Made by a program: the position numbers and the translations under genes
The notes under the pieces: model-generated
The model's database searches: none
What the model saw: only the letters and a program-made list of their open reading frames with translations
What the model was told of the DNA's origin: nothing
Origin: a virus
Lineage: Duplodnaviria > Heunggongvirae > Uroviricota > Caudoviricetes
DNA: 18,880 nucleotides
Strand: one strand, 5' to 3'
IMG/VR virus record: IMGVR_UViG_2740892422_000003
Location: 1 to 18,880 of that record
Shown here: piece by piece, positions 1 to 18,880 of the stretch
Position numbering within the stretch: position 1 is the stretch's first letter
Layout: the number at the start of each line of letters is the position of its first letter

Positions 1-50
1 TTGGTGGAGCTGGCGGGAGTTGAACCCGCGTCCGAAATTCCTACATCCTC
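1..50 (-). repeat. Left att direct repeat: 50-nt copy of the 3' end of the tmRNA gene ssrA, antisense on the + strand (displaced partial copy)
   Basis: Bases 1-50 are identical to 18831-18880. The reverse complement reads GAGGATGTAGGAATTTCGGACGCGGGTTCAACTCCCGCCAGCTCCACCA, the T-arm and acceptor CCA end of the tRNA-like domain of tmRNA. Sequence from 51 onward is AT-rich island DNA, not ssrA body. Confidence 0.85.
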
Positions 51-129: not shown

Positions 130-1143
130 CTAACACTCTGCATGGACATTTTGTGGATCTTTTTTGCTGATTTTTAACTTAATGAACTGAGGAACGCTTG
201 CGTCAATTGTAGTGTGATATTGAAATAAGGGGGATTTTCTATCACGATTATTGATTGAATAACTTATTATATCCTTCATAAGTAGCACAAAGTCAGTGGT
301 GAAATTATATTCAAGTATCTCAACCATTTTTAAATGAAAGTGCCAGTATGATTGTAGATATTTTTTTATATCCAATTCATCCGAAAATTTTGTTTTTAAG
401 AATAAAATATATTCATCTTCACCGTGGGTTGAGCACTGATAGAGTTTTTCAATATCTAAACGCTTTAGTCCATAAAGGTTGTGCAATAATTCTAATAGTT
501 TTTCAATGCTATGTATATGGGTGTATAACTCTGTATAGTCATTAATTTCTTCTTTTTTAAATAGTTCAACTAGTTGGCACCAAATTAATTCTGCATTTTG
601 TATGTAGTCCTTGGAAGCATCAAAATTATTATTAGTAGTTGAAGCATAAGGATAGCATTTACGATATGTAGAATAACAATTTTCAAATTCTAATTTTGCG
701 TTCTTTTTTATCAAAGGAATGTCTAAAGATTCAAGATGTTGTAATGCTTCTATAGTGTTTTTTCTATGGGTATAGAAAAAATCCACTTTGTTTTTCTTTT
801 CTGCTTCTTTGATTTGTTTATCTGTTTGTATTGTTCGATGAATATTATTGACAACTACTCCCAGTGGAATCGATAAAGATAAAACAGCTAAAGGAAGTTT
901 ACTAATGTTTAGGAAATTATTAAATCCTTCCGTATCGATTTGAACATTGTGACCATTCCATGCAACAAATCCGAGCAGAAAAAAACTAATTATTGGAATT
1001 GCCAGTGCGGCTTTGAATAATGGTTGATGCGTAAGAGGTTCAGCATTCATCTTGAATGCATTTATCTTGAATAAATAACCCATGTAAACAACCACAAATA
1101 AAATGTTAAATAAAACGATGCATTGATTGATTGTAAGGTTCAT
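130..1143 (-). CDS. Hypothetical membrane-anchored protein (337 aa), low-GC cargo gene directly downstream of the integrase
   Basis: Long ORF with hydrophobic N-terminal segments (CIVLFNILFVVVYMGYLF, LFKAALAIPIISFFLLGFVAW, LPLAVLSLSIPLGVVV) followed by a roughly 250-aa soluble domain rich in K/E/Y/N. Same strand as int with a 6-nt gap. Much more AT-rich than the phage core. No family recognised. Confidence 0.7.
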   Translation of the reverse strand: MNLTINQCIVLFNILFVVVYMGYLFKINAFKMNAEPLTHQPLFKAALAIPIISFFLLGFVAWNGHNVQIDTEGFNNFLNISKLPLAVLSLSIPLGVVVNNIHRTIQTDKQIKEAEKKNKVDFFYTHRKNTIEALQHLESLDIPLIKKNAKLEFENCYSTYRKCYPYASTTNNNFDASKDYIQNAELIWCQLVELFKKEEINDYTELYTHIHSIEKLLELLHNLYGLKRLDIEKLYQCSTHGEDEYILFLKTKFSDELDIKKYLQSYWHFHLKMVEILEYNFTTDFVLLMKDIISYSINNRDRKSPLFQYHTTIDASVPQFIKLKISKKDPQNVHAEC

Positions 1144-1149
1144 TTTTCT

Positions 1150-3078: not shown

Positions 3079-3121
3079 TCATCACTTTTAGTGATTTTGA
3101 GATTGGGATGGAAGAAAAACA

Positions 3122-3625: not shown

Positions 3626-3634
3626 GGGAACACC

Positions 3635-3808
3635 ATGAAAGCGTTTGTCACTTACCTGAAAAAAGAATCACCAGACATGCAGTTGCCGAGTGGTTCAACG
3701 GGATGGATAGAACTTCCGAACGGTCAGCGCTGGAACCCTGGCCACATGTACAAATTCAATGGCCAGCAGCCGCGTCGCCCATGGTGGCGTCGTCTGATGG
3801 GGCTATAG
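3635..3808 (+). CDS. Small hypothetical early protein (57 aa), not in the ORF track
   Basis: ATG at 3635 is preceded by GAGGGAA about 7 nt upstream, immediately after the cII stop. Translation is MKAFVTYLKKESPDMQLPSGSTGWIELPNGQRWNPGHMYKFNGQQPRRPWWRRLMGL. The overlapping frame (track ORF 3622..) gives a W/P-rich sequence that looks like out-of-frame noise. Confidence 0.4.
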   Translation: MKAFVTYLKKESPDMQLPSGSTGWIELPNGQRWNPGHMYKFNGQQPRRPWWRRLMGL

Positions 3809-3816
3809 GGGGCGTT

Positions 3817-4245: not shown

Positions 4246-4646
4246 TGACCATTATTTCCGTTGAGGGTAAATCGTTGGGGGCTGAACTGGCTGTGTGGGG
4301 TGTCCCGCATAATTACGCTGTAGCGTTTGCAGCGAAAAGCACCAGTAAGAATGGCCGCATCGCTTTGCATCCGTTCTTCTTCAATGACACCGAGCACATG
4401 ACGAATCCGCGTCACTGGCTGGCGATCAATGCCGCTTTCTGGTGTTGCGTGTATCGCGAAGCTGAAAGCAAAGAAGCCCAGATAGAAGCGCTGGCGGGGA
4501 TTCGTGCAATTTTCTATACAGCTGGGGCGCTGGGTGTTGGCGAGATAAAAGCGCTGATCCAGGAGTGGTGGCGGACAACCTATGAGCTTCACCTGATTCC
4601 GGCACCGAACTACTCAGCCGCTACAGTACAACCCACTTTTCACTAA
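4245..4646 (+). CDS. Hypothetical early protein (133 aa)
   Basis: ORF translationally coupled to the upstream gene. No family recognised. Confidence 0.6.
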   Translation: MTIISVEGKSLGAELAVWGVPHNYAVAFAAKSTSKNGRIALHPFFFNDTEHMTNPRHWLAINAAFWCCVYREAESKEAQIEALAGIRAIFYTAGALGVGEIKALIQEWWRTTYELHLIPAPNYSAATVQPTFH

Positions 4647-4713
4647 TTAACAGCCTGAATTTTTTGGCCACGGTTCAAGTGGCCGGGGATTCTTTTGCCT
4701 TAAGGAAACCAAA

Positions 4714-4947
4714 ATGCACATGACACGTCAGGATTTACCCGCAACAAAATCAGGCACCGACCTGCTGGCCATGCTCACCAAAGCCACGCAGGAAGGTAAA
4801 GCCGCAGCTGCTGATCTGTGTTCCACACGTCTGGATAAGCTGGCCACCCATGCAGCCAATGAAGGTTTAAGCGCAGCGGAAATCGTTGAGTTAATCCGCG
4901 AAGAAGCCGCAGCGATTTGCAGCAAAGGCGGTGCGGCATGGCAATAA
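4714..4947 (+). CDS. Hypothetical small protein (77 aa), Ala-rich
   Basis: ATG preceded by AAGGAAA. Its 3' end overlaps the dam start. Confidence 0.5.
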   Translation: MHMTRQDLPATKSGTDLLAMLTKATQEGKAAAADLCSTRLDKLATHAANEGLSAAEIVELIREEAAAICSKGGAAWQ

Positions 4948-5798
4948 AAACTCCGCTTAAATGGGTGGGCAGCAAAGCCCGCCTTATGCCTAAGCTGCGT
5001 CCGCACCTTCCTGAAGGTAAACGCCTGGTTGAACCGTTCGCAGGTTCCTGCGCCGTCATGATGAATACGGATTATGACGATTATCTGATCGCAGATGTGA
5101 ATCCTGATCTGGTTAATCTTTATAAGGCGATGGCGTATCACACTGATGTGCTGCTGAATGAGCTGGAGAGCCTGTTTACTGCCGGTTCGTTAGGTGATGA
5201 AGAAAGCCGTGCCGTTTTCTATTACGCCGTGCGTGATGCTTTCAATCTTTCTGGTGGTAAGGCCGGTTCTGAATCTGTTGAAAATGCTGCGCGTTTCCTG
5301 TACCTGAATCGCCACTGTTTCAATGGCCTGTGCCGGTATAACCGCCGAGGCCAGTTCAACGTCCCGTTCGGTAAGTACAAAAAGCCTTATTTCCCCGCTG
5401 ATGAAATCCGCGCTTTTGCTGAAAAAGCGAAACGCGCAACGTTCATTACTGCCCACTATTCAGAAACGCTCGATTTGGTTCGGGACGGGAATGACGTTGT
5501 TTACTGTGATCCACCTTATCTGACTGAAAGCGATAATTTCACCGCTTACTATGGGCTCGGTTTTTCGCACATGGATCAGGGGAGGCTGGCGCGTAAGTTG
5601 CGCCGTCTGGCCAGAAAAGGCGTGCCGGTTGTGGCCTCTAATGCCGATCTGGAAATGGTGCATTACCTGTACGCCGGATTTGAAGCCGTTCGCATTAATG
5701 CCCCGCGTAGTGTTGGTGCCGCAGCTGCAAGCCAGAAAGTTGCTGCAGAGTTAATTCTGAAGTCGCCGCTTGATTCTATAGCGATGGCCTGCGCATGA
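4938..5798 (+). CDS. dam: DNA adenine methyltransferase (Dam-like, GATC N6-adenine MTase family)
   Basis: Motif I LKWVGSK, HLPEGKRLVEPFAGSCAVMMNTDYDDYLIADVNPDLVNLY, FLYLNRHCFNGLCRYNRRGQFNVPFGKYKKPYFP and catalytic DPPY (VVYCDPPYL) align closely with E. coli Dam as I recall it. Start set at the internal ATG (MAIKTPLKW); the track start at 4917 is an alternative. Confidence 0.9.
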   Translation: MAIKTPLKWVGSKARLMPKLRPHLPEGKRLVEPFAGSCAVMMNTDYDDYLIADVNPDLVNLYKAMAYHTDVLLNELESLFTAGSLGDEESRAVFYYAVRDAFNLSGGKAGSESVENAARFLYLNRHCFNGLCRYNRRGQFNVPFGKYKKPYFPADEIRAFAEKAKRATFITAHYSETLDLVRDGNDVVYCDPPYLTESDNFTAYYGLGFSHMDQGRLARKLRRLARKGVPVVASNADLEMVHYLYAGFEAVRINAPRSVGAAAASQKVAAELILKSPLDSIAMACA

Positions 5799-7816
5799 CT
5801 CCTGTCGCAAATGGCCAACATCATGCCGTCGATACCTGGCGGCGTGAAACGTTCGCACCGGGTACGCCTACAGACGCCACGATCACCGAGCGCCGCCTGT
5901 GGGCGGTTAATCCGCAGGATTACGAATGGCGCTCACAGTACCTGCATGAGATACCCGACTGGTTAGCCGGGTATTTTGGCCGTCGTTACGAAAAGCTTTT
6001 TTCTGGCCGTGACGGGCGTCGCCGTGCCAATACATTCCTGCGCAAAACAATCGGTGAGAATGTATTGCCACGTCTGCGCAAAGTGGCTGCGCGTTACTCG
6101 CTGGCCGCTGATGCTGCTGATCTTCCTTTTGGTAAGTCGCTGGAGCGCTTGCCGTCACTAGACCGTCCTGATCTTAAAAAACTGGCTGGCCAGGTATCTG
6201 GTTGGATTTCCCAGTCACTTTATGACTTCACCGAACAGTTTGATTCCGGCACTGACGATGCCAGAGAGCTGCATCGCCGCACCCTGGAATCTTACCGCCA
6301 TCTTTGTGCCTGTTGCCTGATGCTGAATAACCAGCCGCCGTACTGGACTGAACATGAGGCCAATGAAGGTCAACTGGAAATGCGTAAGGCGGAATCCGGG
6401 ATACTGCGCATGATGGCGCCGGAATGGTGGTACCTGCGTCTTAAACGTGCGCGTGATACGAAGCGCGAGCACATGGCCATTGCGGTGGGACAGGTGCAAA
6501 AAGCGGCCAGCGCTTATGTATCCCGCAAAACACTGGGCGAATGGATAGACCAGAAAAAGCGGAATCTGGAGTTCTTTAAAAAGTTTGATCTGCTGAATGA
6601 TGAGGGGCTGCGCATTGCACTGGACAGCCTGGTGCACCGCAGCGTTGCAAATCCGGCGATCCGTCGATGTGAACTAATGGTAAGAATGCGAGGGTTTGAA
6701 GATATGGCCAATGAAGAAGGACTGGCCGGTGAGTTTTACACCATCACCGCGCCATCACGTTTCCACGCAGTGCACAGCAAAGGTGGCTTTGTATCGCAAT
6801 GGGATGGATGTACGCCGCAGGATACCCAGCGCTATTTATGCGGCATATGGGCAAAAGCACGCGCAGCGATCTCGCGTGCGGGTATTCATGTATTTGGGTT
6901 TCGGGTTGTTGAGCCTCACCATGACGGGACACCGCACTGGCATATGTTGCTTTTTATGCGTCCGCATGACGTGGACACGGTACGCGATATTCTTTGCTAT
7001 CACGCCAGAATTACCGATTCTGAAGAACTGCAATCTGAAAAGGCGCTGAAGGCGCGTTTTCATGTTGAAGCGATCGATCCCGCCAAAGGTTCGGCCACGG
7101 GCTACATCGCGAAATACATTTCAAAAAATATTGATGGTTTTGCGCTGGATGGTGAGCAGGACGAAGAAACCGGCGAAAACCTGCGTGATATGGCTAAGTC
7201 CGTTTCCGCGTGGGCTTCACGCTGGCGTATTCGCCAGTTTCAGCAGATTGGTGGTGCGCCGGTAACTGTCTGGCGTGAGCTGCGTCGGTTGCGGGATCAG
7301 GTGCTGACCGATCGCAGAATGGATGCGGTTCTGGCCGCTGCTGATGTCGGTGACTGGGCTGCATATACCCAGGCGCAGGGCGGTGCACTGGTTGCCCGCC
7401 GTGATCTGGTTGTTCGTCTGGCCTATGAAATTACGGAACAGGGCAACGAGTACGCAGAGGACGTACAGCGCGTACAGGGGGTTTATTCTCCTTTAGTTCC
7501 TGATTCAGAAGTTTGCACCCGTCTGGTTAAGTGGCAAAAGGTTGCGAAGTTGGCCGAAGCGCCAGCGGAGGCGGGGTTTTCTGGCGGCAACGCCGCCCCT
7601 TGGAGTTCTGTCAATAACTGTACGGAGGGGGGAGCCCGCAGACGGTTAAAACTGGAATTACGCAGTCGGGGTTTTGAGGGTTCCGATGAAGAAATAGCCA
7701 TTCTCCTGCGGGGTAGTGGTTTGAGATTCGGTCAAGGGGCGCTGATTTACCGTAATGGGCGGCTTAAAGAGACTCAAAACGAGCCATTACAGGAGCTGTG
7801 GCCGGGGTGGGTGTAG
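5795..7816 (+). CDS. Rolling-circle replication initiation protein (P2 gpA / 186 A-like)
   Basis: 673 aa. Contains an HUH-type motif (HHDGTPHWHMLLF) and a downstream tyrosine motif (GYIAKYISKN) typical of P2 A-family nickases. Sits after the early regulatory genes as in P2/186. Start overlaps the dam stop (ATGA). Confidence 0.88.
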   Translation: MTPVANGQHHAVDTWRRETFAPGTPTDATITERRLWAVNPQDYEWRSQYLHEIPDWLAGYFGRRYEKLFSGRDGRRRANTFLRKTIGENVLPRLRKVAARYSLAADAADLPFGKSLERLPSLDRPDLKKLAGQVSGWISQSLYDFTEQFDSGTDDARELHRRTLESYRHLCACCLMLNNQPPYWTEHEANEGQLEMRKAESGILRMMAPEWWYLRLKRARDTKREHMAIAVGQVQKAASAYVSRKTLGEWIDQKKRNLEFFKKFDLLNDEGLRIALDSLVHRSVANPAIRRCELMVRMRGFEDMANEEGLAGEFYTITAPSRFHAVHSKGGFVSQWDGCTPQDTQRYLCGIWAKARAAISRAGIHVFGFRVVEPHHDGTPHWHMLLFMRPHDVDTVRDILCYHARITDSEELQSEKALKARFHVEAIDPAKGSATGYIAKYISKNIDGFALDGEQDEETGENLRDMAKSVSAWASRWRIRQFQQIGGAPVTVWRELRRLRDQVLTDRRMDAVLAAADVGDWAAYTQAQGGALVARRDLVVRLAYEITEQGNEYAEDVQRVQGVYSPLVPDSEVCTRLVKWQKVAKLAEAPAEAGFSGGNAAPWSSVNNCTEGGARRRLKLELRSRGFEGSDEEIAILLRGSGLRFGQGALIYRNGRLKETQNEPLQELWPGWV

Positions 7817-7896
7817 TTGTGTAAGTATGTGAAAGGCATTCATTTGTCAGTAGATGGCAGGAAAAAGCACTTTCACATTTTGTGCTTAAATGTATA

Positions 7897-7912
7897 CTGT
7901 GTTTATATACAG
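7897..7912. promoter_or_regulatory. LexA (SOS) box, CTGT-N8-ACAG
   Basis: CTGTGTTTATATACAG is a perfect match to the CTGT-N8-ACAG LexA consensus with an AT-rich centre. It overlaps candidate -10 elements (TATACT about 7893-7898, TATATA about 7904-7909). Confidence 0.7.
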
Positions 7913-7931
7913 TTATTCTGTTTTTGGGAGG

Positions 7932-8150
7932 ATGCTTGTGCAGGATTTGTTTTTGGAAACTATCGCATTGCAGCGGATTGCGTTGTTTACAAGGCTTATA
8001 GCTAAAAGTAATTGCACCGGCTGTGAGAAAGACATAGCACTTGCCTGGCTGAGCGAACTGACTTCAGATCTGGAAAGTAAGCTCGATGAGTATGAGAACA
8101 AAACCCCCAGTAATGGGGGCATTTCAGGCGGCGGGAGTCGCTTTCAGTAG
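7932..8150 (+). CDS. Small LexA-controlled ORF (72 aa), positional analogue of a Tum-like SOS antirepressor
   Basis: ATG at 7932 immediately follows GGGAGG and lies about 20 nt downstream of the LexA box. Translation begins MLVQDLFLETIALQRIALFTRLIAKSNCTGCEKD. Its 3' end overlaps the convergent ogr-like gene by about 27 nt. No sequence similarity to Tum recognised. Confidence 0.35.
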   Translation: MLVQDLFLETIALQRIALFTRLIAKSNCTGCEKDIALAWLSELTSDLESKLDEYENKTPSNGGISGGGSRFQ

Positions 8151-8447
8151 GTCTAATGCCATCTGGCGCTGATCGGGTGAAAGTGCATTCAGTATTTTTT
8201 GCACCATCGCATCACCCGTTTTAGCGCTGGGGCTGAGAGTGTGGGAGAACGTCAGATTCATAACAAACGTATGGCCACACTCAACATCTGAACAGGCGCA
8301 GTAAATATCCGCAATTTGCCGGTGCTTCCTGTTCGTTTTACGAATAACAGCCTTTGAGCCGCATTCCGGGCATTCGATTTTCAGAACTCGCATATTCCAT
8401 GCTCCAGCTGTTAAATGATGCCTGGATTTTAGCCTGTTTCGCCTCAT
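8124..8447 (-). CDS. ogr: Ogr/Delta-family zinc-finger late transcription activator
   Basis: Contains CPECGSKAVIRKTNRKHRQIADIYCACSDVECGHTF, matching the Cys4 pattern of P2 Ogr / 186 B (CPxC ... YxQCxNxxCxxTF). The track start overlaps the portal stop (ATGA); an internal Met (MRVLKIECPECG) directly before the zinc finger is an alternative start. Confidence 0.8.
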   Translation of the reverse strand: MRRNRLKSRHHLTAGAWNMRVLKIECPECGSKAVIRKTNRKHRQIADIYCACSDVECGHTFVMNLTFSHTLSPSAKTGDAMVQKILNALSPDQRQMALDLLKATPAA

Positions 8448-9505
8448 GCCGCACCCTTATCCGTTGATTCTGTGTAACTTAAATCAAAGTTAAGGTGTAG
8501 CCTTTCCGGTATTTCGGGATCGTTGTTAACGGCCAGCATGAAACGGCGCTGGATGGGGGCTATTTCGCTTTTCTTGTAAATGCGTTCAGCCTTTTCAACA
8601 TCCCCCAGTCCGGCAGTGTTCTGCGGGACAATACCGGCGAGGCCAGCAGGGAAACGGTGCGCGTTCAGAATGTCCTGGGCGCTGATGTTTTTGATGTTGG
8701 CAAATTCATCCTTCGCGGAAATATCCCCCATTTCAATGAATTTGATTGCGTCACCGTCTCCACCAGGAATGTTTACAAGGATGGTGGAGAAGTTACCGAT
8801 CCCTTTGCTGTCACGCAGCTGCTGTTCAATTTCTTCCTCCATTTCGTCCGTCATGCTGGGATCGCGGGTATAAAGAATACCGCCAGTGTGCGCACCGTTG
8901 TGGTAATAGCGGCGTCGGAAAATGACCGCTTCACTGTTTAGTAACGCGGAATGCACGCCGCCGATGTAGTCCGGCAGTCCGTAGATATGCTGTTGCGGGT
9001 CATACATTTTGATGAAGATAATATCTTCTTCTGGCCATACCTGCGGTTCTCCTTCCTGTAACACCACGTAGTCACCGGGCTTATCCTGGGCGTTATCTCT
9101 GACTTTGCGGCGGCGAATATACAGACCGGGCAAGGGTTCAAGTGCGATCACGTCGCCCCAGCCGTTACGAATTTTGGCAATTGCAATATCCCCAAAGGTT
9201 ATATAGTCAAACGCTGCCGCTTCCAGCTGGTCGTGAATAAGCCCGCCCCCCTGGTAGTCTGAAACAATCATGTTTTTGCGGGCGTGAATGATGCCGCCGT
9301 GCTGACCGTTAAGATTAATCAGCTGTGCGAGTGCCAGCCGGTCAATCGGCTGGGTGAAGTGATCGGCGGCATTGTCGTACCAGATATCACGATAATCTGT
9401 GCCGGTAGTCAGAACCGGTTCAGGTTTGCCGAATGTGATAATGCTCATCTTTTTTGATTTGTCGCCGCGCTGGTCGCGCTTAACAAAGCGTTTCTTTTTA
9501 CTCAT
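8444..9505 (-). CDS. Capsid portal protein (P2 gpQ-like)
   Basis: 353 aa, same size and position as P2 Q (downstream of and overlapping the terminase gene, divergent from scaffold/capsid genes). Basic N-terminus (MSKKKRFVKRDQRGDKSKK). Confidence 0.8.
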   Translation of the reverse strand: MSKKKRFVKRDQRGDKSKKMSIITFGKPEPVLTTGTDYRDIWYDNAADHFTQPIDRLALAQLINLNGQHGGIIHARKNMIVSDYQGGGLIHDQLEAAAFDYITFGDIAIAKIRNGWGDVIALEPLPGLYIRRRKVRDNAQDKPGDYVVLQEGEPQVWPEEDIIFIKMYDPQQHIYGLPDYIGGVHSALLNSEAVIFRRRYYHNGAHTGGILYTRDPSMTDEMEEEIEQQLRDSKGIGNFSTILVNIPGGDGDAIKFIEMGDISAKDEFANIKNISAQDILNAHRFPAGLAGIVPQNTAGLGDVEKAERIYKKSEIAPIQRRFMLAVNNDPEIPERLHLNFDLSYTESTDKGAA

Positions 9506-11277
9506 GCTGCCTCTTTCCTTACACCCCAGCGGGATTTAGGTTTGTTTTCATAGTTAAGGGGTTCGTTATGCAGACCGTGGGTAATCGCCCAGAACGCCTC
9601 CGCGTGGCCAGTATCCTGGCTGCGGTCAGCGACAAACGTCATGGCGTTGCCGCTTTGTGTGGTGGTTCGGCGCACAGACATAAAGCTGGCCGCGATCTCT
9701 TTCAGGTTTTTATCCCACTCAATACGCTGGCTTTCCACCACGTCCACCGCTTTCAGTACCAGTTGATTTTTAGTGTTCAGGTCGTAACGAATAGGGACGG
9801 CCACGCGCATGGCAAAATGCTGAATGTTGTCAAAAACACCCTGGCCAATGCCGGTAACGTCCACCCCCAGATAAGTGAAGTTGTATTTTTTGAACAACTG
9901 CTCGATCTGTTTTGCCTGATACCGGAAGTTCATGCCTTTCCAGTAAATCACCTTCAGAACGCGGAACTTCTCCACGGCGAGCATCGGTGGAGCGATGATG
10001 ACAAAACAGGACAAATCACCGCTGCGAGCCGGGTCAAAGCCACCCCATACAGGTCTGTCACCGAATGGCCGCGCTGCATCAGGATTGTGATCCTGCCAGG
10101 TGTCGATTTCAACGCCGCAGGCTTCCAGATCGGAAAAGCTGAAAACGGAATCTTTGCTGTCAACGAACACGCACATATAGAGCATGTTAAAAGTGGCGTC
10201 GTTGTAGCGGTTGCGAAGTTTCTCGATGTTCGCCAGGTTGAAACCGCCCGCAATGGCATCTTCCATCGTAATGACGTAGCGCCATTGCCCATCCGGGCAG
10301 AGTCGCCCACCGTCACGCATTTCGTTAAAGGAAGGAAACTTAATGGCCGCACGTTTTTTACTGCCCTGTTTCCACTCATCGCCCGTCCAGAACGGGTACG
10401 CCTGGTGCGTTTTTGCCGATGGCGTTGAAAAATAGGTGGTACGCCACTTGTCATGCGTGGCCATTGCGCTGGCCACTTCGTTAAGTTTTGCAAAGTTTGG
10501 TACCCAGAAATATTCGTCACAGTACAGGTGGCCGCTGTAGGACTGGGCGGTGTTTTTGTTGGTGGAGAGAAAACGCAGTTCTGCGCCGTTGCTTAAGCGG
10601 ATCGGGTTGCCGGTCAGCGTAATACCGAAATACTGCTCTGCAATATTCACGATGTAAGACCGGAACACTTCAGCCTGAGCCTTTGACGCTGACAGAAAGA
10701 TTTGCGGATCGCCGGTCATCACCGCGTTTTCAAACGCTTCAAACGCAAAATACCAGGTTGCACCGATCTGGCGGCTTTTCAGGATGTTCCTGACAAGCTG
10801 GCCAATGTTATTGCGCAGGTGTTTCTGATATTCAAAAAGATGTTCCTCAGCCCATGCGTCAAAGTCCTCCTGCGTCAGCGAGGTAATATCGTTTTTCTTG
10901 TACTTCCGTTTGCTGCGCGGTTCGTCGTCATTGTTGTCCCGTGCAGTTGCTTGCCCGGAACTCTGACCGCTGGCCATTTTCTCTTTATGTTTATTACTCT
11001 GCGCACGCAGTTTGGTGGCATGAGTAATGAGCATGTCCATTTCTTTCAGGTCGAGATCGGTTTTGTTATCGCGGCTGGCCAGCAGCTGGTAACGGCGTTC
11101 AATCGCTTCCTCTGTGCTTTCAAAACTGAGCAAATCCGCCCAGCTGTATTTCTCCGCCCAGTAGTAAACGATCCGCGCATTCGGCAGATTTAATTCAGAT
11201 GCGATTTCCTTTGGCGTATAGCGGCGCAGATAAAGTGCGCGAACAACGCCTTTTAATTCTTCAGAGTATTTAGCCAT
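9502..11277 (-). CDS. Terminase large (ATPase) subunit (P2 gpP-like)
   Basis: 591 aa (P2 P is about 590 aa). Divergent from the scaffold gene across a short control region and followed by the portal gene with a 4-nt overlap, as in the P2 head module. Confidence 0.82.
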   Translation of the reverse strand: MAKYSEELKGVVRALYLRRYTPKEIASELNLPNARIVYYWAEKYSWADLLSFESTEEAIERRYQLLASRDNKTDLDLKEMDMLITHATKLRAQSNKHKEKMASGQSSGQATARDNNDDEPRSKRKYKKNDITSLTQEDFDAWAEEHLFEYQKHLRNNIGQLVRNILKSRQIGATWYFAFEAFENAVMTGDPQIFLSASKAQAEVFRSYIVNIAEQYFGITLTGNPIRLSNGAELRFLSTNKNTAQSYSGHLYCDEYFWVPNFAKLNEVASAMATHDKWRTTYFSTPSAKTHQAYPFWTGDEWKQGSKKRAAIKFPSFNEMRDGGRLCPDGQWRYVITMEDAIAGGFNLANIEKLRNRYNDATFNMLYMCVFVDSKDSVFSFSDLEACGVEIDTWQDHNPDAARPFGDRPVWGGFDPARSGDLSCFVIIAPPMLAVEKFRVLKVIYWKGMNFRYQAKQIEQLFKKYNFTYLGVDVTGIGQGVFDNIQHFAMRVAVPIRYDLNTKNQLVLKAVDVVESQRIEWDKNLKEIAASFMSVRRTTTQSGNAMTFVADRSQDTGHAEAFWAITHGLHNEPLNYENKPKSRWGVRKEAA

Positions 11278-11437
11278 GCGGATAATTATGCCGTGGCTGT
11301 GATGAAAAAACGGTGGTGTTAATTCGTGTCCGTTCGGTAAAGCGTTATAACCGAACTGTTCAGAATAAAGCGTAATGCAGTGGCGGTTTTATTTGGCAAT
11401 AATTGATTTGCAGCGTCAGGGAGTGGAACAGGGGGAT
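11278..11437. promoter_or_regulatory. Divergent late-promoter region between terminase (leftward) and scaffold (rightward) genes, containing a dyad symmetry element
   Basis: Inverted repeat GTTCGGT-N11-ACCGAAC at about 11332-11356, embedded in TGTCCGTTCGG...CCGAACTGTTCAG. It lies between two divergently starting late operons, where P2-type late promoters carry the activator-binding dyad. Confidence 0.5.
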
Positions 11438-12241
11438 ATGTCACATTTAAAAACTGACTGGCTGTGTGTTGCTACTGAAGGGGATACCGTTGACGGCAGG
11501 GTAATTAAACGGCAGTGGATCATTGATATGGGGGAAACCTATGACTATAGCCACTATGTCGCTTTAATCTGGCCAGAACATGAGGATGATTGCGGAAATT
11601 TTGGTGAAGTGCTGGAAGCCACCTGGAATGATGGTGAAGATGGACTGGCACGGTTATATGTCAGCCTTTGCCCGAATATGCGTCTGATTTTCGCAAATCA
11701 TGAAGATCAGCTTTTGTTCTTCTCCATTGAGCCGGAAGAAAACTGGCGCGGTAGCGGGCGTACTTACCTGAAAGGGCTGGCGGTAACAGATACACCTGCC
11801 AGCGTTGGCACCACACGGCTGCGCTTTAGTAGTCGGCGCAATAAATTAACAAAGCAGGGATATTACAGCTGTGTAATTTCCCATGACGGAAAAATTAAAC
11901 AGGAAGCAAGAATGAAGAACTGGCAGAAACTGTTTGGTCTTAAACCAAAGTTTGAAGATGAAACGCCGCAGGATAATCCTGCCCCGGATGAAGATAAATT
12001 ACAGGCGCTTGCCAATGTGGTTAACGATCTGGAAGCGCGTGTGGCGAAAATTGAAACTCAACTGAATGACGTTCAGGGTGATGTTGACACAATCGCTGAA
12101 GTGGTGGATACGCAGGAATTTGCGGCAATTCGCGATAATGCAAAAGAAATCGTAACCCGCTTTAACGATTTGGGTAATAAAAACCCCCGTACACCGGGGC
12201 GTACTATTAAAGATAAAGCCGGGAAATTTAATTTCCTGTAA
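11438..12241 (+). CDS. Capsid scaffolding protein (P2 gpO-like)
   Basis: Internal ATG preceded by AGGGGGA. N-terminal VATEGDTVDGRVIKRQWIIDMGETYD resembles the P2 O N-terminus (GVEGDTCDGRVI...) as I recall it, and YLKGLAVTDTPASVGTTRLRF resembles the conserved gpO protease-like segment. The track ORF begins 63 nt upstream at 11375. Confidence 0.8.
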   Translation: MSHLKTDWLCVATEGDTVDGRVIKRQWIIDMGETYDYSHYVALIWPEHEDDCGNFGEVLEATWNDGEDGLARLYVSLCPNMRLIFANHEDQLLFFSIEPEENWRGSGRTYLKGLAVTDTPASVGTTRLRFSSRRNKLTKQGYYSCVISHDGKIKQEARMKNWQKLFGLKPKFEDETPQDNPAPDEDKLQALANVVNDLEARVAKIETQLNDVQGDVDTIAEVVDTQEFAAIRDNAKEIVTRFNDLGNKNPRTPGRTIKDKAGKFNFL

Positions 12242-12303
12242 TTCGCTTTATTGCTGATTAGTCCAGAACATATTTTTAAATCGCTTAATTGCGAGGGAGT
12301 TTT

Positions 12304-13326
12304 ATGCACCTTAATAATCGTGCGCGGGATTTACTGGATAAATATTCGGCGGGGATGGCGCAGCAGTTTGGTGCGCGTGATACCAGTCGATATTTTTCCC
12401 TGAATGACCCGCAGGAAAATGCGCTGCGTCTTGCGTTGCTGGAATCCGTCGAGTTCCTGAACATGATCACCTGTCTGGATGTTGACCAGCTGAGTGGCCA
12501 GGTGATCTCTGTCGGTTCTTCCGTGCTGCATACCGGCCGCAGCGAAAATGGCCGTTTTATTCGTCAGGTAGGCGTTGACGGTAATGACTATTCCCTGGTT
12601 GAAACAGACAGCTGCGCCGCACTGCGCTGGGATCTGCTTTCTGTCTGGGCAAACGCCGGTAAGGACGAAAACGAATTTTACAACCTGGTACAGGCATTCA
12701 CCACGCAGGCTTTTGCGCTGGACATGTTGCGCATTGGTTTCAATGGTAAGAGCCGGGCGAAAACCACTGATCCGGTAGCAAACCCGAACGGTGAAGATGT
12801 GAACATCGGCTGGCATGAGCGTATGAAAACGCTGCTGGGCGGCAATCAGATTATGACGGATGCCGTGGTGCTTGATGAGGCCGGGGATTACAAGTCACTG
12901 GATGCAATGGCGTCCGATCTGATTAACGCCAAAATCCCGGCGCAGTTCCGCAATGACCCGCGTCTGGTTGTCCTGGTCGGTGCCGATCTGGTCGCTGCTG
13001 AACAGTACCGACTGTATCAGGCGGCAGACCGTCCGACTGAAAAAATTGCTGCGCAGATGCTGGGAAGTACCATTGCTGGCCGTCAGGCCATTATCCCGCC
13101 GTTTATGCCGGGTAAACGCATGGTGGTTACGCCGCTTTCTAACCTGCACATCTACACCCAGCGCAATACCCGTATGCGTAAGGCGGAGTTTGTTGAAGAT
13201 CGTAAGCAGTTCGAAAACAAATACCTGCGCAATGAAGGTTACGCGGTGGAAGTGCCGGAGCTGTATGCGGCCATTGATGAATCCGCAGTGACGATCGGCA
13301 AAGTCTCCGAACCGGTGGAGGGCTGA
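12304..13326 (+). CDS. Major capsid protein (P2 gpN-like)
   Basis: About 340 aa from the ATG preceded by GAGGGAG. Segments FNGKSRAKTTDPVANPNGEDVNIGWHE and GDYKSLDAMASDLIN resemble recalled P2 N sequence. Directly follows the scaffold gene. Confidence 0.85.
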   Translation: MHLNNRARDLLDKYSAGMAQQFGARDTSRYFSLNDPQENALRLALLESVEFLNMITCLDVDQLSGQVISVGSSVLHTGRSENGRFIRQVGVDGNDYSLVETDSCAALRWDLLSVWANAGKDENEFYNLVQAFTTQAFALDMLRIGFNGKSRAKTTDPVANPNGEDVNIGWHERMKTLLGGNQIMTDAVVLDEAGDYKSLDAMASDLINAKIPAQFRNDPRLVVLVGADLVAAEQYRLYQAADRPTEKIAAQMLGSTIAGRQAIIPPFMPGKRMVVTPLSNLHIYTQRNTRMRKAEFVEDRKQFENKYLRNEGYAVEVPELYAAIDESAVTIGKVSEPVEG

Positions 13327-13329
13327 TAA

Positions 13330-15222
13330 ATGGCACTTTCCCCCGCGCAGCGTCACAGCCAGCGCATTGCGATGGAACAAAAGCTGAAACGCAGCCAGGC
13401 ACTGGAAACCACGGAAAGTATGCACCTGCTGATCAGGGCGTTGGAAACAGATGTGGAACACGTTCGAAGTCTGCCTACCATCGCCGATCGCGTCGAGTAT
13501 AAACGCGATGTGCTGTTAATGATGAAACCAGTAAAACGCCTTTACCTTTCAACGGATGAAGTTCACCTGGTGGATGCCAGCCTGGTACTGGAGCTGAACA
13601 GCTGCGGCCGGGGCTTCATCACCGCAGAGACAACAACCGATTACACCGGAAAACTGGTGCGGCTGGATGTGGGGTATACCGATCTGCTTTTGCGCTGGTT
13701 TACGGGGTATGTGGAGCGATCACAGCCCGCAGAAAACGGTTTTCAGCGTCTGTTCATTCGTGAGCTGGCAGGTGTGTTTGAAAGGATGTGGCCGTGTTCG
13801 TTTCAACACCCGACTTTGCGAGAAATTGCGGGCTGGCTGGAAGAAAACAGCGGGATCACAGTCAGTGTGCCTGATGCACAGTACAGCGATACCCCCATCC
13901 CACATTTTACCCATAACGGTACTGGTTATCAGTTGCTGAACAATCTGGGCAGGGCGTTCAGTATCCAGGATTACATCTGGTACCAGTTGCCTGATGGTTC
14001 GCTTTACGTCGGCGGCGCAGAAAAATCATTGTTTGCCGGTCGTCCCGTAGAAATCCCGTCAGAGTTCAGCCAGGGGGCTGCTGGCGGTAACTCTGTGACA
14101 TTACCAGTGATCCAGACTATGCGGCCAGGGGTGGAGATGAACGGTGAACGCGTGACTAAAGTTCACCTGACGAATGACACGATGGCGATCACATGGACGC
14201 CGAGAAACCGCGCAACGGGTAAACCTTTGCAGAAAACACCGGCGCAACGGCAGATTGAAAGCCATTACCCGGAACTGGCATCCGGGCTTCATTTGCCAAA
14301 GATGGCCAGAGTCGTGGCGCATTCAGAGCCAGTAAAAAGCGGTAACTTTGCCGATCCCTTCCGGCCACGTTACGCAGTGGACGTGCAGCTGCTTGACGCA
14401 GACGGAAACCCGGACAATCAGACGCCTGTTTACTCAGCGGTGCCGCTGCCGGTGCCAATGGCCGGGAATGATTCAGGTATGTTTCAGTTCCCGCCAGAAG
14501 GGACGCTGGTTGAGGTTGCATTCACGGGAGGCAGACCGGATAAACCCTTTATCAGGCAGACGCTGCCGGATGGTACCAGCCTGCCGGACGTTAAACCCGG
14601 TGAGCAATTGCAGCAGCAGCGGGAAGAAGTTTCCCAGCGGGTGACTCAGGCAGGAGACTGGGTAAGACAGACCGATCAGACCATCAGTGAAACATCGATG
14701 GTGCGAACGGTAAAGGCCGATACGGAACAGCGCGAACTGGTCAGCCGTGAAACCACGGTGAAAGCCACGGATAAAACTACGGTACTGGGAACCGCCACAC
14801 TGCTGGCCGGAGCTATTCAGCAGGTAAGCGCCGGTGATTATAGCCAGGCGGTGAAAGGTAACAGACTGGCCAGTATTGAAGGAAACGAAGAAACGGACAT
14901 AGCAGGACAGCAGTCCACTAAAGTGGGCGGTGCTGTAGCCGTGGAGGTTGGCGAAAGCCTGACAGAGAAAATTGCCGCACTGCGTAAATCAGTGGCCGCT
15001 GGCGGTCAGCAGGTCATGGGGGCAACTGTCCATATTGGCAGTGAGAGTATCAACGCCCTGACCATGATGCTGGATACCATTGATTTACTGGCAGATCTGG
15101 CGCAGCAATGCGCGAGCCATTCGCACCCCACCGTTGGGACGCCAACCAATGCCGCCGCGTTCACACAGACGGCGACGAAAGCCGGGCAGACCCGGAGCAA
15201 GTACCAGGGGATCATTGCTTAA
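13330..15222 (+). CDS. Chimeric 630-aa protein: small-terminase-like N-terminus (gpM-like) joined to a baseplate central-spike-like C-terminus (gpV/gp5/VgrG-like OB fold plus His-containing apex)
   Basis: Starts 4 nt after the capsid gene stop, with GGAGGG upstream. The N-terminus MALSPAQRHSQRIAMEQ resembles the start of P2 gpM (MTSPAQRH..., from memory). The C-terminal half has an OB-fold spike signature (FQFPPEGTLVEVAFTGGRPDKPFI), a repetitive T/V/K-rich segment (TVKADTEQRELVSRETTVKATDKTTVLGTA) and an HxH element near the end (CASHSHPTVGTP). Confidence 0.6.
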   Translation: MALSPAQRHSQRIAMEQKLKRSQALETTESMHLLIRALETDVEHVRSLPTIADRVEYKRDVLLMMKPVKRLYLSTDEVHLVDASLVLELNSCGRGFITAETTTDYTGKLVRLDVGYTDLLLRWFTGYVERSQPAENGFQRLFIRELAGVFERMWPCSFQHPTLREIAGWLEENSGITVSVPDAQYSDTPIPHFTHNGTGYQLLNNLGRAFSIQDYIWYQLPDGSLYVGGAEKSLFAGRPVEIPSEFSQGAAGGNSVTLPVIQTMRPGVEMNGERVTKVHLTNDTMAITWTPRNRATGKPLQKTPAQRQIESHYPELASGLHLPKMARVVAHSEPVKSGNFADPFRPRYAVDVQLLDADGNPDNQTPVYSAVPLPVPMAGNDSGMFQFPPEGTLVEVAFTGGRPDKPFIRQTLPDGTSLPDVKPGEQLQQQREEVSQRVTQAGDWVRQTDQTISETSMVRTVKADTEQRELVSRETTVKATDKTTVLGTATLLAGAIQQVSAGDYSQAVKGNRLASIEGNEETDIAGQQSTKVGGAVAVEVGESLTEKIAALRKSVAAGGQQVMGATVHIGSESINALTMMLDTIDLLADLAQQCASHSHPTVGTPTNAAAFTQTATKAGQTRSKYQGIIA

Positions 15223-15319
15223 TGCTGGTATTCATGTGATAAGTTGAGACGTTCTGGACTTCCTGATGGCTGTAGCTCTGTTGTTGGGTAGCCCAGAAAA
15301 ATTCGAAATAAAATGGGTA

Positions 15320-15874
15320 TCAAGTAGTGGTAATTGTATGGCTTTTGCGGGTTATATAAACGCTATTGGCGGGTACGTCTCTGTTAACGAATGACATTGC
15401 GCCAATTGTCACGTTATCACCAATGGTTAGATCATCACCGATGATGCACGAATTTGCACCAATCTCCACATTGTCTCCGATCCTGATGGCTTTGATTCCC
15501 TCAACCGTTTTTAATCCAATTGTTGTGTTTTGTCGGATACGCACATTCTTACCAATCACAGCCTGGGGGCAAATGACTATTCCAACGAAATGATAAATTT
15601 TGAATTTTTCCCCTATCTGTGCCCCCAACCCAATATCAGTATTGTATTTTGAAACAAGTCTCCTATGGATTCTTCGCGCCCATTTCACTCTTGCTCTCCC
15701 ACCCTGGCAGTAAAGGCAATTCGCTATTCTCCACCAACACATGAACCTGTATCCGGGCTGTCTCCAGCAACGTAGTATGATTCTTCTCCATGAGAATTTT
15801 TTACTGTTGCTCAGTATGTCCGCGCACAATAACTGCTTCATTTCCTCGTAGTGAGATATTTTGCTGCTGCTCAT
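15320..15874 (-). CDS. Hexapeptide-repeat (left-handed beta-helix) acetyltransferase, WcaB/CysE-like sugar O-acetyltransferase family
   Basis: Tandem hexapeptide repeats (IGKNVRIRQNTTIGLKTVEGIKAIRIGDNVEIGANSCIIGDDLTIGDNVTIGAMSFV) and an N-terminal region similar in pattern to WcaB-type acetyltransferases. Lower GC than the phage core. Start is ambiguous (ATG at 15874 or 15841; the track ORF begins with TTG at 15889). Confidence 0.8.
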   Translation of the reverse strand: MSSSKISHYEEMKQLLCADILSNSKKFSWRRIILRCWRQPGYRFMCWWRIANCLYCQGGRARVKWARRIHRRLVSKYNTDIGLGAQIGEKFKIYHFVGIVICPQAVIGKNVRIRQNTTIGLKTVEGIKAIRIGDNVEIGANSCIIGDDLTIGDNVTIGAMSFVNRDVPANSVYITRKSHTITTT

Positions 15875-16661
15875 AAATTGTCCGTCCAAATAATCCTGAC
15901 GGTTATCGTAACATGGGAATGGTCTGATTTTCTGCTAACAGCACAACACTAGGCTATGTGGTTCGGTCTGATAGTGGGCTTCTTCATCCAAAATGATTTA
16001 GTTGGGTTACCAACACAAATCTATTTCTCACATCGTCATAGGCGTCACCAGACGCATTTTAAACCCTTTAGTAACAAACCCTACCCCGCGCACCAAGTGT
16101 AAAAGATCCGAAGCGTGGCGTGGCGCTGGTAGGGTCATATGATGGCGAAATAAATCTTTCGCAGACAAAAACGGCGCTACACCGCACCCGCCTGCGGTTT
16201 CTGGATCTGGAAATTTTTTCAGTTTTATTTTTCTACAAACCAGACCGCCAGACCGCACCATTACTGGCGGCTTTGCAGATAATCAGAACTGAAATGATTG
16301 AAAAGAATTTCAGTGTTTTTCACTTTCATGGATCTGTGGAGGATCGAATACAAAATGTAACCAGCAGAAAAATAAGGGGAAATAATTTTTTTGTGAGTGG
16401 GAAGGATCGTTTTTGTTTTCTGGTTGTTTTCGTCGTAGAAAAGCCGAGGCCAGATTTAGCAAGGCATAGGGACAATTAGAAGGTTCATAGAAAACTGAAA
16501 AAACTGCATGCATGTCGTGGAAACTAGCGAGCTAACAATTGCATCGAAATCTAATTTTAATCTTGGAACTTGAGAAAACTTTTGTCAAATTAGTTGTCGC
16601 TTTTTAGTTGTGGATATCCTTCCGATGTTTACTTGGCAGAGCTTACATTAAGGCATTCGAT

Positions 16662-17780
16662 ATGACTGAAAAATTCACCGCAATTTTGTTAGATACGAGT
16701 ATCTACGATCAGTACGGATTAAAGCTTGAGAAAGGACTGCTGGGTAAGCTTTCCCAGTTCAGCAGAACCCCGACAACGTTTTTGATACCGGATGTAATTT
16801 ACAATGAAGTTAAAAATCATCTTGAAAGAAAAATCAAGACATCACGTGGCTCCCTTGAGAAAGCTTTCGAAGAAGCTGGCGATCATCTTTTTTTTGATGG
16901 AAGCGAACTAAATGATGCAAGAAAAACATTGATTGAAAGCAGAGAAGTTGAAGGATTAGGAAAGAGCAGATTAGACAGATTTGTTGGCGTAACAGATGCG
17001 AAGGTTCTAACTACAGGGGATTATGTTTCGGTACCTGAACTCCTTGAACGATACTTCTCTTCTGAAGCTCCTTTCGCAGATACAGGTAAGAAAAAAAATG
17101 AGTTTCCCGATGCAATAACATTAATGGCCGTCCAAGCCTGGGCTAAAGAGAATGGTGAAAATGTTCTTGCTGTAGCAAGAGATGACGACTGGCAGAGATT
17201 TTGTATTGATGCTGAGAATTTGCACTATGAACCTGACTTATCAAACGCTTTAGCACACTTCAATGAAGAAACCGCACCTTATGAACTAATTGATAACTTA
17301 CAAAAAGCACTTGCTGAAGGACAAGCCGGTAAATTCTTGCATGATGTTGCTGTACACCTTGAGTCAACCTTTGAAGGATTTGCACCAGAACAAGAGGCAG
17401 ATTCATATTTATACTGGGAGGCTGACGGATGCTCAGGTGGATTTGAAGATTTTGAGTTTACAGATAACCACTTCACTGTCATCGACAAGGATGAAAACTG
17501 GGTTGTTATAGAAGCATTTGCAGACATTTCACTTTACGCAGAAGGTGATTTCTCCCTATCGGTTTACGATTCATTCGACAAAGACCATGCTTACATGGGG
17601 TCAATTACCAAGCGAGCCGAGGAAACATATACATCCAGAATACTTATCACAATCTCCGGAGACTTATCAGGTTCTATAGATGATTTGACCGTTGACGATG
17701 TGGAAGTGATCGAGCGTCCAACGTCGATGGATTTTGGGGAGCTTGAATTAGAGTATGAGCCTGACGAGCAAGACTTGTAA
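16662..17780 (+). CDS. PIN-like domain protein with a strongly acidic C-terminal region (372 aa)
   Basis: Start at the ATG (MTEKFTAILLDTSIYDQYG) preceded by TAAGG. The N-terminus has a PIN-like acidic signature (ILLDTSIY; later EFPDAITLMAV, ARDDDW). The C-terminal roughly 150 aa are very D/E-rich (EADGCSGGFEDFEFTDNHF...DDLTVDDVEVIERPTSMDFGELELEYEPDEQDL). Low GC. Confidence 0.65.
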   Translation: MTEKFTAILLDTSIYDQYGLKLEKGLLGKLSQFSRTPTTFLIPDVIYNEVKNHLERKIKTSRGSLEKAFEEAGDHLFFDGSELNDARKTLIESREVEGLGKSRLDRFVGVTDAKVLTTGDYVSVPELLERYFSSEAPFADTGKKKNEFPDAITLMAVQAWAKENGENVLAVARDDDWQRFCIDAENLHYEPDLSNALAHFNEETAPYELIDNLQKALAEGQAGKFLHDVAVHLESTFEGFAPEQEADSYLYWEADGCSGGFEDFEFTDNHFTVIDKDENWVVIEAFADISLYAEGDFSLSVYDSFDKDHAYMGSITKRAEETYTSRILITISGDLSGSIDDLTVDDVEVIERPTSMDFGELELEYEPDEQDL

Positions 17781-17884
17781 CAACTATGATTAGGCACTAT
17801 CGCTGTCGCCATTTTGTCGCCAACTCGATTGCAGTTTCGTTGTAACTAATTGAATTTAATCTTTTTTATTTTCAGGCAACAAAA

Positions 17885-17915
17885 AACCCATCATCTTTAG
17901 AGCATGATGGGTTTA
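17885..17915. terminator. Bidirectional rho-independent terminator between convergent cargo genes
   Basis: AAAAAA, then stem CCCATCAT, a 9-nt loop, stem ATGATGGG, then TTTA, at about 17881-17915 between the PIN-like gene (ends 17780) and the convergent HEPN-like gene (ends 17924). Confidence 0.6.
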
Positions 17916-17923
17916 TAACTTGC

Positions 17924-18733
17924 TTATTCTTTTTTTTCATCCCACGATTCAAGAATAAACATAGTTAGTGTATGTGCAGCATTGATGGCTAATCGTGCGT
18001 GTCGGGGCTTGAGATTGTAAATTTTTCGTCCTGCGCCATGAGCTGAACTCGCATGAGTTCTTAGCGAGCCGATACCATCGGTGAGAGAATATAAGCCGCT
18101 CAAAATGCGTTTTAAGTCCTCATCTTCTACCGCTTTAGTGTCAAGACCTAAATGTTCACGAACGGTCTTCCACAAGCCCTGCAAATCCTGCTTCGCAGGA
18201 ATCGGTAGGTTTTCATCTGCGATAAAAATTTTAAATGTTGATTCTAATATATTACAGGCTGCTGATACTGCTTCTCTTGGGTCAGTATGCAAGTTTTCTA
18301 AAGCTCTTGCGAATTCCATTTCTACTGCTGGAGTATTACGTTTCTGGATAGCTTCTTTCAAGGAAAGGGATGCTAGTGATGCTCCATCAGTAATGTAACC
18401 GCCAGTCACATAGTTCAGCCCATAACGACCAAGTAGTTCCGGCATTTTTTTAACAAACTCGACTTTCTTTTTTTCCCACTCATAGTATGGATTGGCGGGT
18501 AACTCTGACTCCATATAGGTTTCGATTAAGCGACCAAGTAAAACTAATGGTTCATCAGATTCTTTATTAATACGCCTTAACCATTCGAGAGCTTTAACGT
18601 GCTTAGATCCTTCGGGTGGTTCCCCTGGCGCATCAGCATAGGCAAACAAACTATCCAAACTAGCATGGGTTTCAGTGCTAGCAACGAAGTCAGCTACAAC
18701 AGATATTACAGGTTGAGGTATTGGCCGTCCCAT
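17924..18733 (-). CDS. HEPN-like / abortive-infection (Abi_C-like) protein (269 aa)
   Basis: The C-terminal segment GSLRTHASSAHGAGRK fits the HEPN R-x(4-6)-H motif found in Abi_C-type domains, followed by NAAHTLTMFIL. Low GC. Lies next to the right att repeat. Confidence 0.6.
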   Translation of the reverse strand: MGRPIPQPVISVVADFVASTETHASLDSLFAYADAPGEPPEGSKHVKALEWLRRINKESDEPLVLLGRLIETYMESELPANPYYEWEKKKVEFVKKMPELLGRYGLNYVTGGYITDGASLASLSLKEAIQKRNTPAVEMEFARALENLHTDPREAVSAACNILESTFKIFIADENLPIPAKQDLQGLWKTVREHLGLDTKAVEDEDLKRILSGLYSLTDGIGSLRTHASSAHGAGRKIYNLKPRHARLAINAAHTLTMFILESWDEKKE

Positions 18734-18830
18734 ATCTACTCCATCAGCGGGTCAATTTTGAACTTAGTGGACGCAAAGTGGACATTGCATAAAAAAAGGG
18801 ACTACGTTTTCACGTAACCCCTTGTTTTAA

Positions 18831-18880
18831 TTGGTGGAGCTGGCGGGAGTTGAACCCGCGTCCGAAATTCCTACATCCTC
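18831..18880 (-). repeat. ssrA: Right att direct repeat: 3' end of ssrA (tmRNA), probably the end of the intact gene whose body lies beyond the window
   Basis: Identical to bases 1-50. The reverse complement is the tmRNA 3' tRNA-like end with CCA. For a minus-strand ssrA the gene body would lie at coordinates above 18880. Confidence 0.85.

Follow-up and report, generated by a model that had tools for sequence, protein, structure and literature searches.

Separate cargo genes, two of them candidate abortive-infection nucleases, in slots around attP and a probable cos in a defective ESSI2_ev040-like prophage

The virus sequence IMGVR_UViG_2740892422_000003 from the IMG/VR database, whose 18,880 nucleotides (positions 1 to 18,880) are called the window here, is a tail-deleted prophage similar to Escherichia phage ESSI2_ev040 and located in the ssrA gene of E. 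coli. The subject of interest is its right arm, where there are genes for a hexapeptide O-acetyltransferase (AT, 184 aa, 15320..15874, minus strand), a PIN_12/DUF4935 protein (372 aa, 16662..17780, plus strand), and an Abi_C/AbiJ-like HEPN protein (269 aa, 17924..18733, minus strand). The reading that we consider probable, with some room for doubt, is that these genes are the contents of an accessory, or "moron", region made of separate single-gene modules at the packaging-site and attP end of a defective phage of the ESSI2_ev040 type. The modules would most likely be two single-protein abortive-infection nucleases and one surface-polysaccharide acetyltransferase, functions that we infer from the sequences and predicted folds.

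A prophage hotspot of defense cargo is a known phenomenon, and database entries already name the proteins "abortive infection family protein" and "PIN domain-containing protein". What is added here is the anatomy of the slots around a probable cos and attP, and with it evidence for a second hotspot position in P2-related phages. We also nominate DUF4935/PIN_12, which keeps more than 50% identity across Gammaproteobacteria, Geobacteraceae, and Bacteroidota, as a single-gene defense candidate. Should it prove active, it would amount to a compact PIN defense in one protein with a sensing domain of its own. Prophage hotspots are a productive source of new immune genes.

Cargo slots around a conserved element

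An earlier sequence-only reading of this DNA had described one block of three low-GC cargo genes with alternating orientation and a terminator between the last two. The three open reading frames (ORFs) are where that reading put them, with Pfam matches far above chance, and they are unrelated to morphogenesis. The composition is as described, with 41.5% GC in the block at 15223-18830 (AT 43.2%, PIN_12 40.9%, Abi_C 42.3%) versus 52.0% in the phage core at 3122-15222, where 555-bp windows have a standard deviation of 3.1% and a minimum of 43.1%. The orientations do alternate (minus, plus, minus), and between the convergent PIN_12 and Abi_C genes there is a hairpin at 17884..17914 with a U-run on the minus strand, folding at −19.3 and −19.7 kcal/mol on the two strands with z scores against shuffled sequences of −4.25 and −5.0. 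It looks like an intrinsic terminator of Abi_C. A simple terminator scan missed it, probably since loops were limited to 3-8 nt, and folding confirmed it. Two starts were revised, that of AT from TTG 15889 to the likely ATG 15874 as called in public assemblies, and that of the PIN_12 protein from TTG 16608 to ATG 16662, which agrees with every homolog.

What did not hold up is the single block. It is split by a conserved non-coding element of the phage core at 16148..16391, and is instead two or three separate insertion slots around that element rather than one contiguous cargo island. Slot 1 runs from the baseplate gene to the conserved element and contains AT, as an insertion of about 870 bp that is common to ESSI2_ev040. 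The upstream (promoter) part of AT at 15875..16147 (minus strand) is likewise common to ESSI2_ev040, and is absent from relatives that have no AT gene. Slot 2 runs from the conserved element to attP and contains PIN_12 and Abi_C. Slot 3 lies across attP, between att and int, and contains the 30%-GC gene ORF337. Rfam scans of the block at both gathering and E ≤ 1 thresholds found the tmRNA alone, with no known RNA in the conserved element.

Assortment and turnover of the cargo

Among the related loci that were fetched for comparison (L numbers below), the trio is found together in 9, PIN_12 alone in 9, Abi_C alone in 7, AT with PIN_12 in 2, Abi_C with PIN_12 in 2, and AT with Abi_C in 1. The earlier idea that the genes are independent units is borne out by these occurrences in every pairing and singly. 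Locus L002 has an identical Abi_C beside ssrA, with PIN_12 and AT replaced by other genes including a 350-aa ORF, the 352-aa counterpart of which in L066 matches PDC-S64. In E. coli LR-51, L008, and L011, where this phage type is integrated beside ybjL, there is PIN_12, in some cases accompanied by AT, and no Abi_C. By megablast against complete E. coli genomes, PIN_12 was found in LR-51 only and a close copy of Abi_C in none.

The locus turns over between relatives, as had been anticipated. In all, 42 IMG/VR relatives have dozens of unrelated cargo clusters downstream of a 567-aa baseplate gene, and known defense systems are among the cargo in the sister-phage slot. PADLOC matches there are to AbiU (E = 4.5e-26), HEC-04 (E = 3e-204), a type II methyltransferase (E = 1.3e-109), Dazbog DzbA (E = 4.7e-57), PDC-S64 (E = 7.5e-45), and Shosta ShosA (E = 2e-52). 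In the slot of L082 (8084-10370), DzbA is adjacent to a 366-aa gene with no PADLOC match, which may be a divergent Dazbog partner.

By its sequence content, then, the slot resembles the defense hotspots that Rousset et al. (2022, PMC9122126) described for P2 and P4, although it lies elsewhere in the genome. The likeness is that of a fixed slot in Peduoviridae, flanked by conserved core sequence, with fast cargo turnover and with known defense systems in relatives; adjacency to a packaging site, which would be a further likeness, is probable here. The P2 hotspot, however, lies between gpA and the portal gene gpQ, whereas the slot here follows the last baseplate gene, beside attP and int. In this element the gpA-portal gap (the classical P2 old/tin hotspot) is essentially empty, holding only an 86-aa ORF and an ogr-like gene. 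The phage is also of the Quadragintavirus type and not P2 proper, and it has no P2-type cos motif, its own cos being a probable one.

The PIN_12 protein

The PIN fold that had been proposed for the second gene is real. PIN_12 (PF16289) matches at E = 2.9e-32, scoring 112.8 bits against a cut-off of 32 and covering profile positions 1-172 of 172, and the N-terminal part (about residues 1-200) has a VapC-like PIN fold. In the predicted model, which has a predicted local distance difference test (pLDDT) score of 85, a helical linker connects the PIN domain to a beta-rich C-terminal domain at about 240-360. The acidic site is intact: in a set of 49 sequences from several phyla, with identities of 52-90%, residues D11, D44, E49, D150, D174, and D176 never vary. 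Many C-terminal positions of the homologs are likewise invariant, and homologs of 365-376 aa keep 52-60% identity in Gammaproteobacteria, Geobacteraceae, and Bacteroidota. No NCBIfam matches the protein.

The literature on DUF4935 consists of the 2017 PIN classification only, where the family was described as monocistronic and was assigned no function (Matelska et al. 2017, PMC5499597). Our protein agrees with that description in its length (about 350-380 aa), its two-region architecture, and its being monocistronic. There is no conserved small ORF up- or downstream of PIN_12 in the E. coli, Vibrio, Aeromonas, or Shewanella loci, and an antitoxin partner was rejected as a candidate on the grounds that the neighbors across these four genera share nothing. 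PIN_12 departs from the VapC toxins in having no antitoxin gene, in being roughly three times their size, and in carrying a conserved C-terminal domain of its own, so that it does not belong with VapBC.

In isolation, the C-terminal domain has no Pfam match at E ≤ 10. A search of 1.84 billion representatives found it in 237 representative clusters and almost only in this architecture, at about 200-370 of proteins of about 365-400 aa or in short, probably partial, gene products. Reuse of the domain on other effectors was rejected on this basis. Since it is nearly confined to its own architecture, the domain belongs inherently to the family, as opposed to being a sensor module shuffled between proteins.

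PIN_12 occurs on 55 IMG/VR contigs, often at the contig end, and directly beside int in three other 186-like lineages. In Aeromonas and Shewanella it is a single-gene insertion between housekeeping genes. In a filamentous prophage (inovirus) of Vibrio cholerae (L016-L018), a homolog with 54% identity is the end cargo; it adjoins the Rep_trans/Zot module and comes with an uncharacterized 123-aa gene. This locus is possibly a case of defense-type cargo in an inovirus.

Our proposal, considering the fold, the intact active site, the solitary mobility, and the hotspot position, is that PIN_12 is an auto-inhibited RNase that aborts infection. Encoded between the cos-like element and attP, it would be a self-contained, normally inactive, Mg-dependent RNase, with the family-specific C-terminal domain holding the nuclease off until a phage cue appears; once released, it would cut RNA and the infection would be aborted. 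A broader reading, which we hold more tentatively, is that PIN_12 is a new and widespread single-gene abortive infection family of PIN RNases, gated by their own C-terminal domain and spread among bacteria in myovirus and inovirus prophages and in single-gene islets, and that the Quadragintavirus-type hotspot has followed cos to the attP end. If that is true, the rule of defense cargo beside cos would extend beyond P2 and P4.

The Abi_C protein

Abi_C (PF14355) matches residues 187-262 at E = 8.4e-22, scoring 77.5 bits against a cut-off of 24. The HEPN Rx4-6H motif that had been pointed out is indeed there as R225-x6-H232, and R225, H227, and H232 are invariant in 42 homologs that are 59-89% identical. 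In the AlphaFold2 model (pLDDT 86), an N-terminal helical domain (1 to about 120) is followed by a C-terminal domain with the four-helix HEPN fold. PADLOC, which had been suggested as a check on all three proteins, recognizes this one by its AbiJ model (E = 9e-17), through the C-terminal HEPN half only, and gives no match for PIN_12 or AT.

The protein is like the AbiJ/Abi_C HEPN family of Anantharaman et al. (2013, PMC3710099) in having a C-terminal Abi_C HEPN domain with the Rx4-6H motif in a single protein. In that paper, proteins of this kind are modeled as a suicidal HEPN RNase fused to an N-terminal sensor or inhibitor. On that pattern, the gene beside attP and ssrA would encode an AbiJ-like HEPN RNase with its helical N-terminal domain in the role of sensor or inhibitor. 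Searching the PDB with the family profile gave no true relatives by sequence. The likeness to HepS, a HEPN protein of the Gifsy-1 prophage that acts in abortive infection (PMC13043305; PDB ID: 9oik), is at the level of the fold only, with 12% identity over 121 aligned residues.

The family is a large one of 1,740 matches; those of full length have 270-280 aa and come from Enterobacterales, Acinetobacter, Vibrio, and Myxococcota. In Salmonella the protein is common beside ssrA, and a variant from that genus belonging to the same 90%-identity cluster is on at least 1000 contigs. Because a 67%-identical homolog in Serratia (L109) also directly follows smpB-ssrA, the Abi_C gene appears to move together with the ssrA attachment module.

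The position has a possible bearing on expression. While the phage is circular, int, ORF337, attP, and Abi_C all have the same direction. In the integrated state, Abi_C is about 100 bp downstream of the host ssrA, and between them there is only a terminator hairpin (18796..18823, minus strand) situated directly past the ssrA 3' end and supplied by the phage side of att, in a stretch that is common to Cronobacter phage ESSI-2. Abi_C has a good ribosome binding site, but the approximately 60 bp from the terminator to the start codon contain nothing promoter-like by a simple promoter scan. Since only the phage terminator separates the gene from ssrA and no promoter-like site was found, integration may alter Abi_C expression, possibly through read-through from ssrA.

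The acetyltransferase

AT matches Hexapep (PF00132) at E = 1.5e-12, with 47 bits against a gathering threshold of 27, and is a left-handed beta-helix enzyme. It is closest to EpsC, CysE, and WcaB. It is 97.8% identical to a protein of ESSI2_ev040 named as a serine acetyltransferase. It belongs to phrog_2154 and has homologs in many phages, including Citrobacter phiNP, Hafnia yong2, and Streptococcus thermophilus phages. Other beta-helix acetyltransferases are found in neighboring slots of sister phages. With no match in PADLOC-DB v2.0.0 at E ≤ 0.1, nothing ties AT to defense.

The most likely assignment, by analogy, is to the surface-polysaccharide O-acetyltransferases. An established case is NeuO, a prophage-encoded beta-helix O-acetyltransferase that modifies the polysialic acid capsule and is a lysogenic-conversion gene of prophage CUS-3 (PMC3046976). 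AT shares with NeuO that it is a prophage-borne left-handed beta-helix O-acetyltransferase, but no NeuO-named chain is among the PDB chains matched by AT at E ≤ 0.001. Encoded between the last baseplate gene and the cos-like element, AT would O-acetylate a surface polysaccharide or sugar precursor, and its effect would be lysogenic conversion by masking of a receptor.

The conserved element as a probable cos

The non-coding element at 16148-16391 is present in 70 of 80 related viral loci, usually starting about 160 bp past the baseplate gene. Its most conserved stretch, 16160-16200, is at least 95% conserved among 67 distinct copies, and the substitutions across these copies have no codon periodicity (0.259, 0.300, 0.269). 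Some assemblies call a gene here, ORF119 (16120-16479), which was rejected for having neither a Pfam or PHROG match nor codon periodicity. Many E. coli genomes have matches to the element in unannotated DNA, which in the two loci examined lies within related prophages.

The element is probably cos, the physical end of the virion DNA, with the end at 16183/16184. We infer this because the GenBank record of ESSI2_ev015 stops exactly at the equivalent of 16184, and the opposite end of that record opens with a Nextera adapter, after which comes the sequence immediately to the left of the 16184 equivalent, while in ESSI2_ev040 adapter sequence is inserted at the same spot as the ev015 end. In phage HP1 the last tail genes, cos, and int are neighbors, and the layout here fits that arrangement. 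A cos beside the portal gene in the style of P2 was dropped as a candidate, as the P2/186 motif GGCGWGGCGGGGAAAGCA is absent from the window with up to 3 mismatches allowed.

As a side matter, the element has clustered GGATC/GATC sites, with 5 GATC in 331 bp of it versus 4.2 per kb overall, in a phage with its own Dam methylase. The layout recalls the Dam-regulated pac site of P1. Another side matter is that NC_049395 and NC_049393 in GenBank/RefSeq contain Nextera adapter and index sequence, at positions 1-48 of locus L104 and within the conserved element of ESSI2_ev040 (L015), an assembly artifact that happens to mark the probable virion DNA ends.

Alternative explanations

Several results weigh against the reading of the region as moron modules with two abortive-infection nucleases. 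About a third of the hotspot genes tested by Rousset et al. (2022, PMC9122126) gave defense, and because of this proportion location by itself is weak evidence. PIN_12 has no match in PADLOC-DB v2.0.0 at E ≤ 0.1, and since it matches no known defense family there, it is only by its location that a defense role is suggested for it. It also has no PHROG family and no homolog in 50,697 GenBank phage records, and a PDB search with its family profile gave no true relatives by sequence. Its C-terminal domain is not shuffled onto other effectors, which makes the sensor role a guess. For the Abi_C protein, the AbiJ model aligns to residues 156-265 only (profile positions 170-278 of 281) and the N-terminal 151 aa have no Pfam match at E ≤ 10, the AbiJ_NTD families included. 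For these reasons we place it by sequence among the AbiJ-family HEPN proteins, with its N-terminal domain left unclassified, differing from lactococcal AbiJ in those approximately 150 residues. The cos assignment depends on the assembly break points of two GenBank records. Finally, the sources of AT say "serine acetyltransferase", and a small-molecule substrate is possible.

A different use for PIN_12 and Abi_C would be to serve the prophage, as addiction or stabilization toxins, host-takeover RNases, or counter-defense factors. We think this unlikely, though it deserves attention: hotspots carry non-defense cargo too, with about a third of tested systems active, and PIN_12 has no known defense relative while PIN domains are the classic toxins of toxin-antitoxin pairs. 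On the other hand, no antitoxin-like partner is conserved beside PIN_12, the Abi_C family was founded on an abortive-infection gene, the slot holds six known or candidate PADLOC defense families in sister phages, and both genes persist in a prophage stripped of its tail genes. That PIN_12 and Abi_C make up one two-gene system, for instance with one controlling or neutralizing the other, we find exceedingly hard to credit. In the window and in 11 fetched loci they are convergent neighbors, yet they have a terminator hairpin between them, and each goes without the other, PIN_12 in LR-51, L008, L011, L059, Vibrio, Aeromonas, and Shewanella, and Abi_C in L002, L066, L075, ESSI2_ev040, Serratia, and Acinetobacter.

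The same two genes might be the remnant of an earlier ssrA island in tandem with the phage. The conserved phage element does stop at 16391, to the left of both, and around the Serratia Abi_C that comes after smpB-ssrA no phage genes are called to a distance of about 6 kb, and an insertion sequence transposase is nearby. But the window contains no internal ssrA repeat, ESSI2_ev040, which is virome-derived, has an Abi homolog between the conserved element and int, and PIN_12 travels with the same phage type to the other att site beside ybjL; we consider the island very doubtful. As for AT, it could be a true serine O-acetyltransferase, an auxiliary metabolic gene boosting cysteine synthesis, as suggested by its source names and by CysE enzymes being its best relatives in the PDB and NCBIfam. 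This would surprise us, as its scores are far under the equivalog cut-offs (72.7 vs 210.65 for cysE, TIGR01172; 87.5 vs 150 for EpsC; 69.2 vs 196 for WcaB; and 49.4 vs 397 for PRK11132), so that it is not a CysE equivalog. In solved serine acetyltransferases, moreover, its alignment covers nothing but the catalytic C-terminal beta-helix half (residues about 116-270), and its 184 aa agree with the size of short polysaccharide acetyltransferases, the profile of WcaB having 162 positions and that of EpsC 168.

The integrated element and its other genes

The window is the whole 18.9-kb integrated element, with exact 50-bp ssrA repeats at both ends. The right att repeat had been recognized correctly in the earlier reading: positions 1-50 and 18831-18880 are identical, and both are the last 50 nt of the tmRNA on the minus strand (Rfam, 53.4 bits). 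The right copy (18831..18880) is followed by smpB in public assemblies with identical proteins, and therefore it is the one that completes the intact ssrA outside the window, which makes the window the entire element. The left copy (1..50), at the integrase end, is a displaced ssrA 3' fragment on the minus strand that continues into non-ssrA sequence. Draft genomes of E. coli contain exact copies of the element's proteins.

Among named phages, Escherichia phages ESSI2_ev040 and ev015 (Peduoviridae, Quadragintavirus) come nearest. The gene order in ESSI2_ev040 is AT, the conserved non-coding element, Abi (77% identity), and int, with no PIN gene. The block in the window begins after a 630-aa fusion ORF (13330..15222, plus strand), where small-terminase residues 3-63 are joined in frame to a complete baseplate protein, as identified by PHROGs. 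It had been called the last structural ORF, which is right as to the left boundary, although as a terminase-small/baseplate deletion fusion it is not a plain ORF. Full-length relatives have genes for a tape-measure protein, baseplate J, a tail fiber, and an HP1_ORF34-like protein ahead of the baseplate gene, so from the fusion we conclude that the intervening genes were deleted and that the prophage is defective. All of the cargo genes are intact despite the tail-gene deletion.

At the other end, ORF337 (337 aa, 130..1143, minus strand, phrog_17460) is located between the left att and int. It has several hydrophobic N-terminal helices and then a soluble domain, with no significant Pfam match (best E = 0.08) and no PADLOC match. 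The same att-int slot holds PIN_12 homologs in other 186-like phages (L121-L127). ORF337 may be a further defense or exclusion candidate.

The remaining Pfam matches in the window are to int, a CI-type repressor, CII, the Dam methylase, the gpA replication protein, and an Ogr-type zinc finger. ORFs with the size and order expected for portal, large terminase, scaffold, and capsid are present, assigned by those two features and with no family-library scan. The phage-encoded Dam methylase gene is at 4917-5798 and the gpA gene at 5795-7816, and the Ogr/Delta-type zinc-finger gene (8124-8447, minus strand) overlaps the start of the putative portal gene at 8444-9505.

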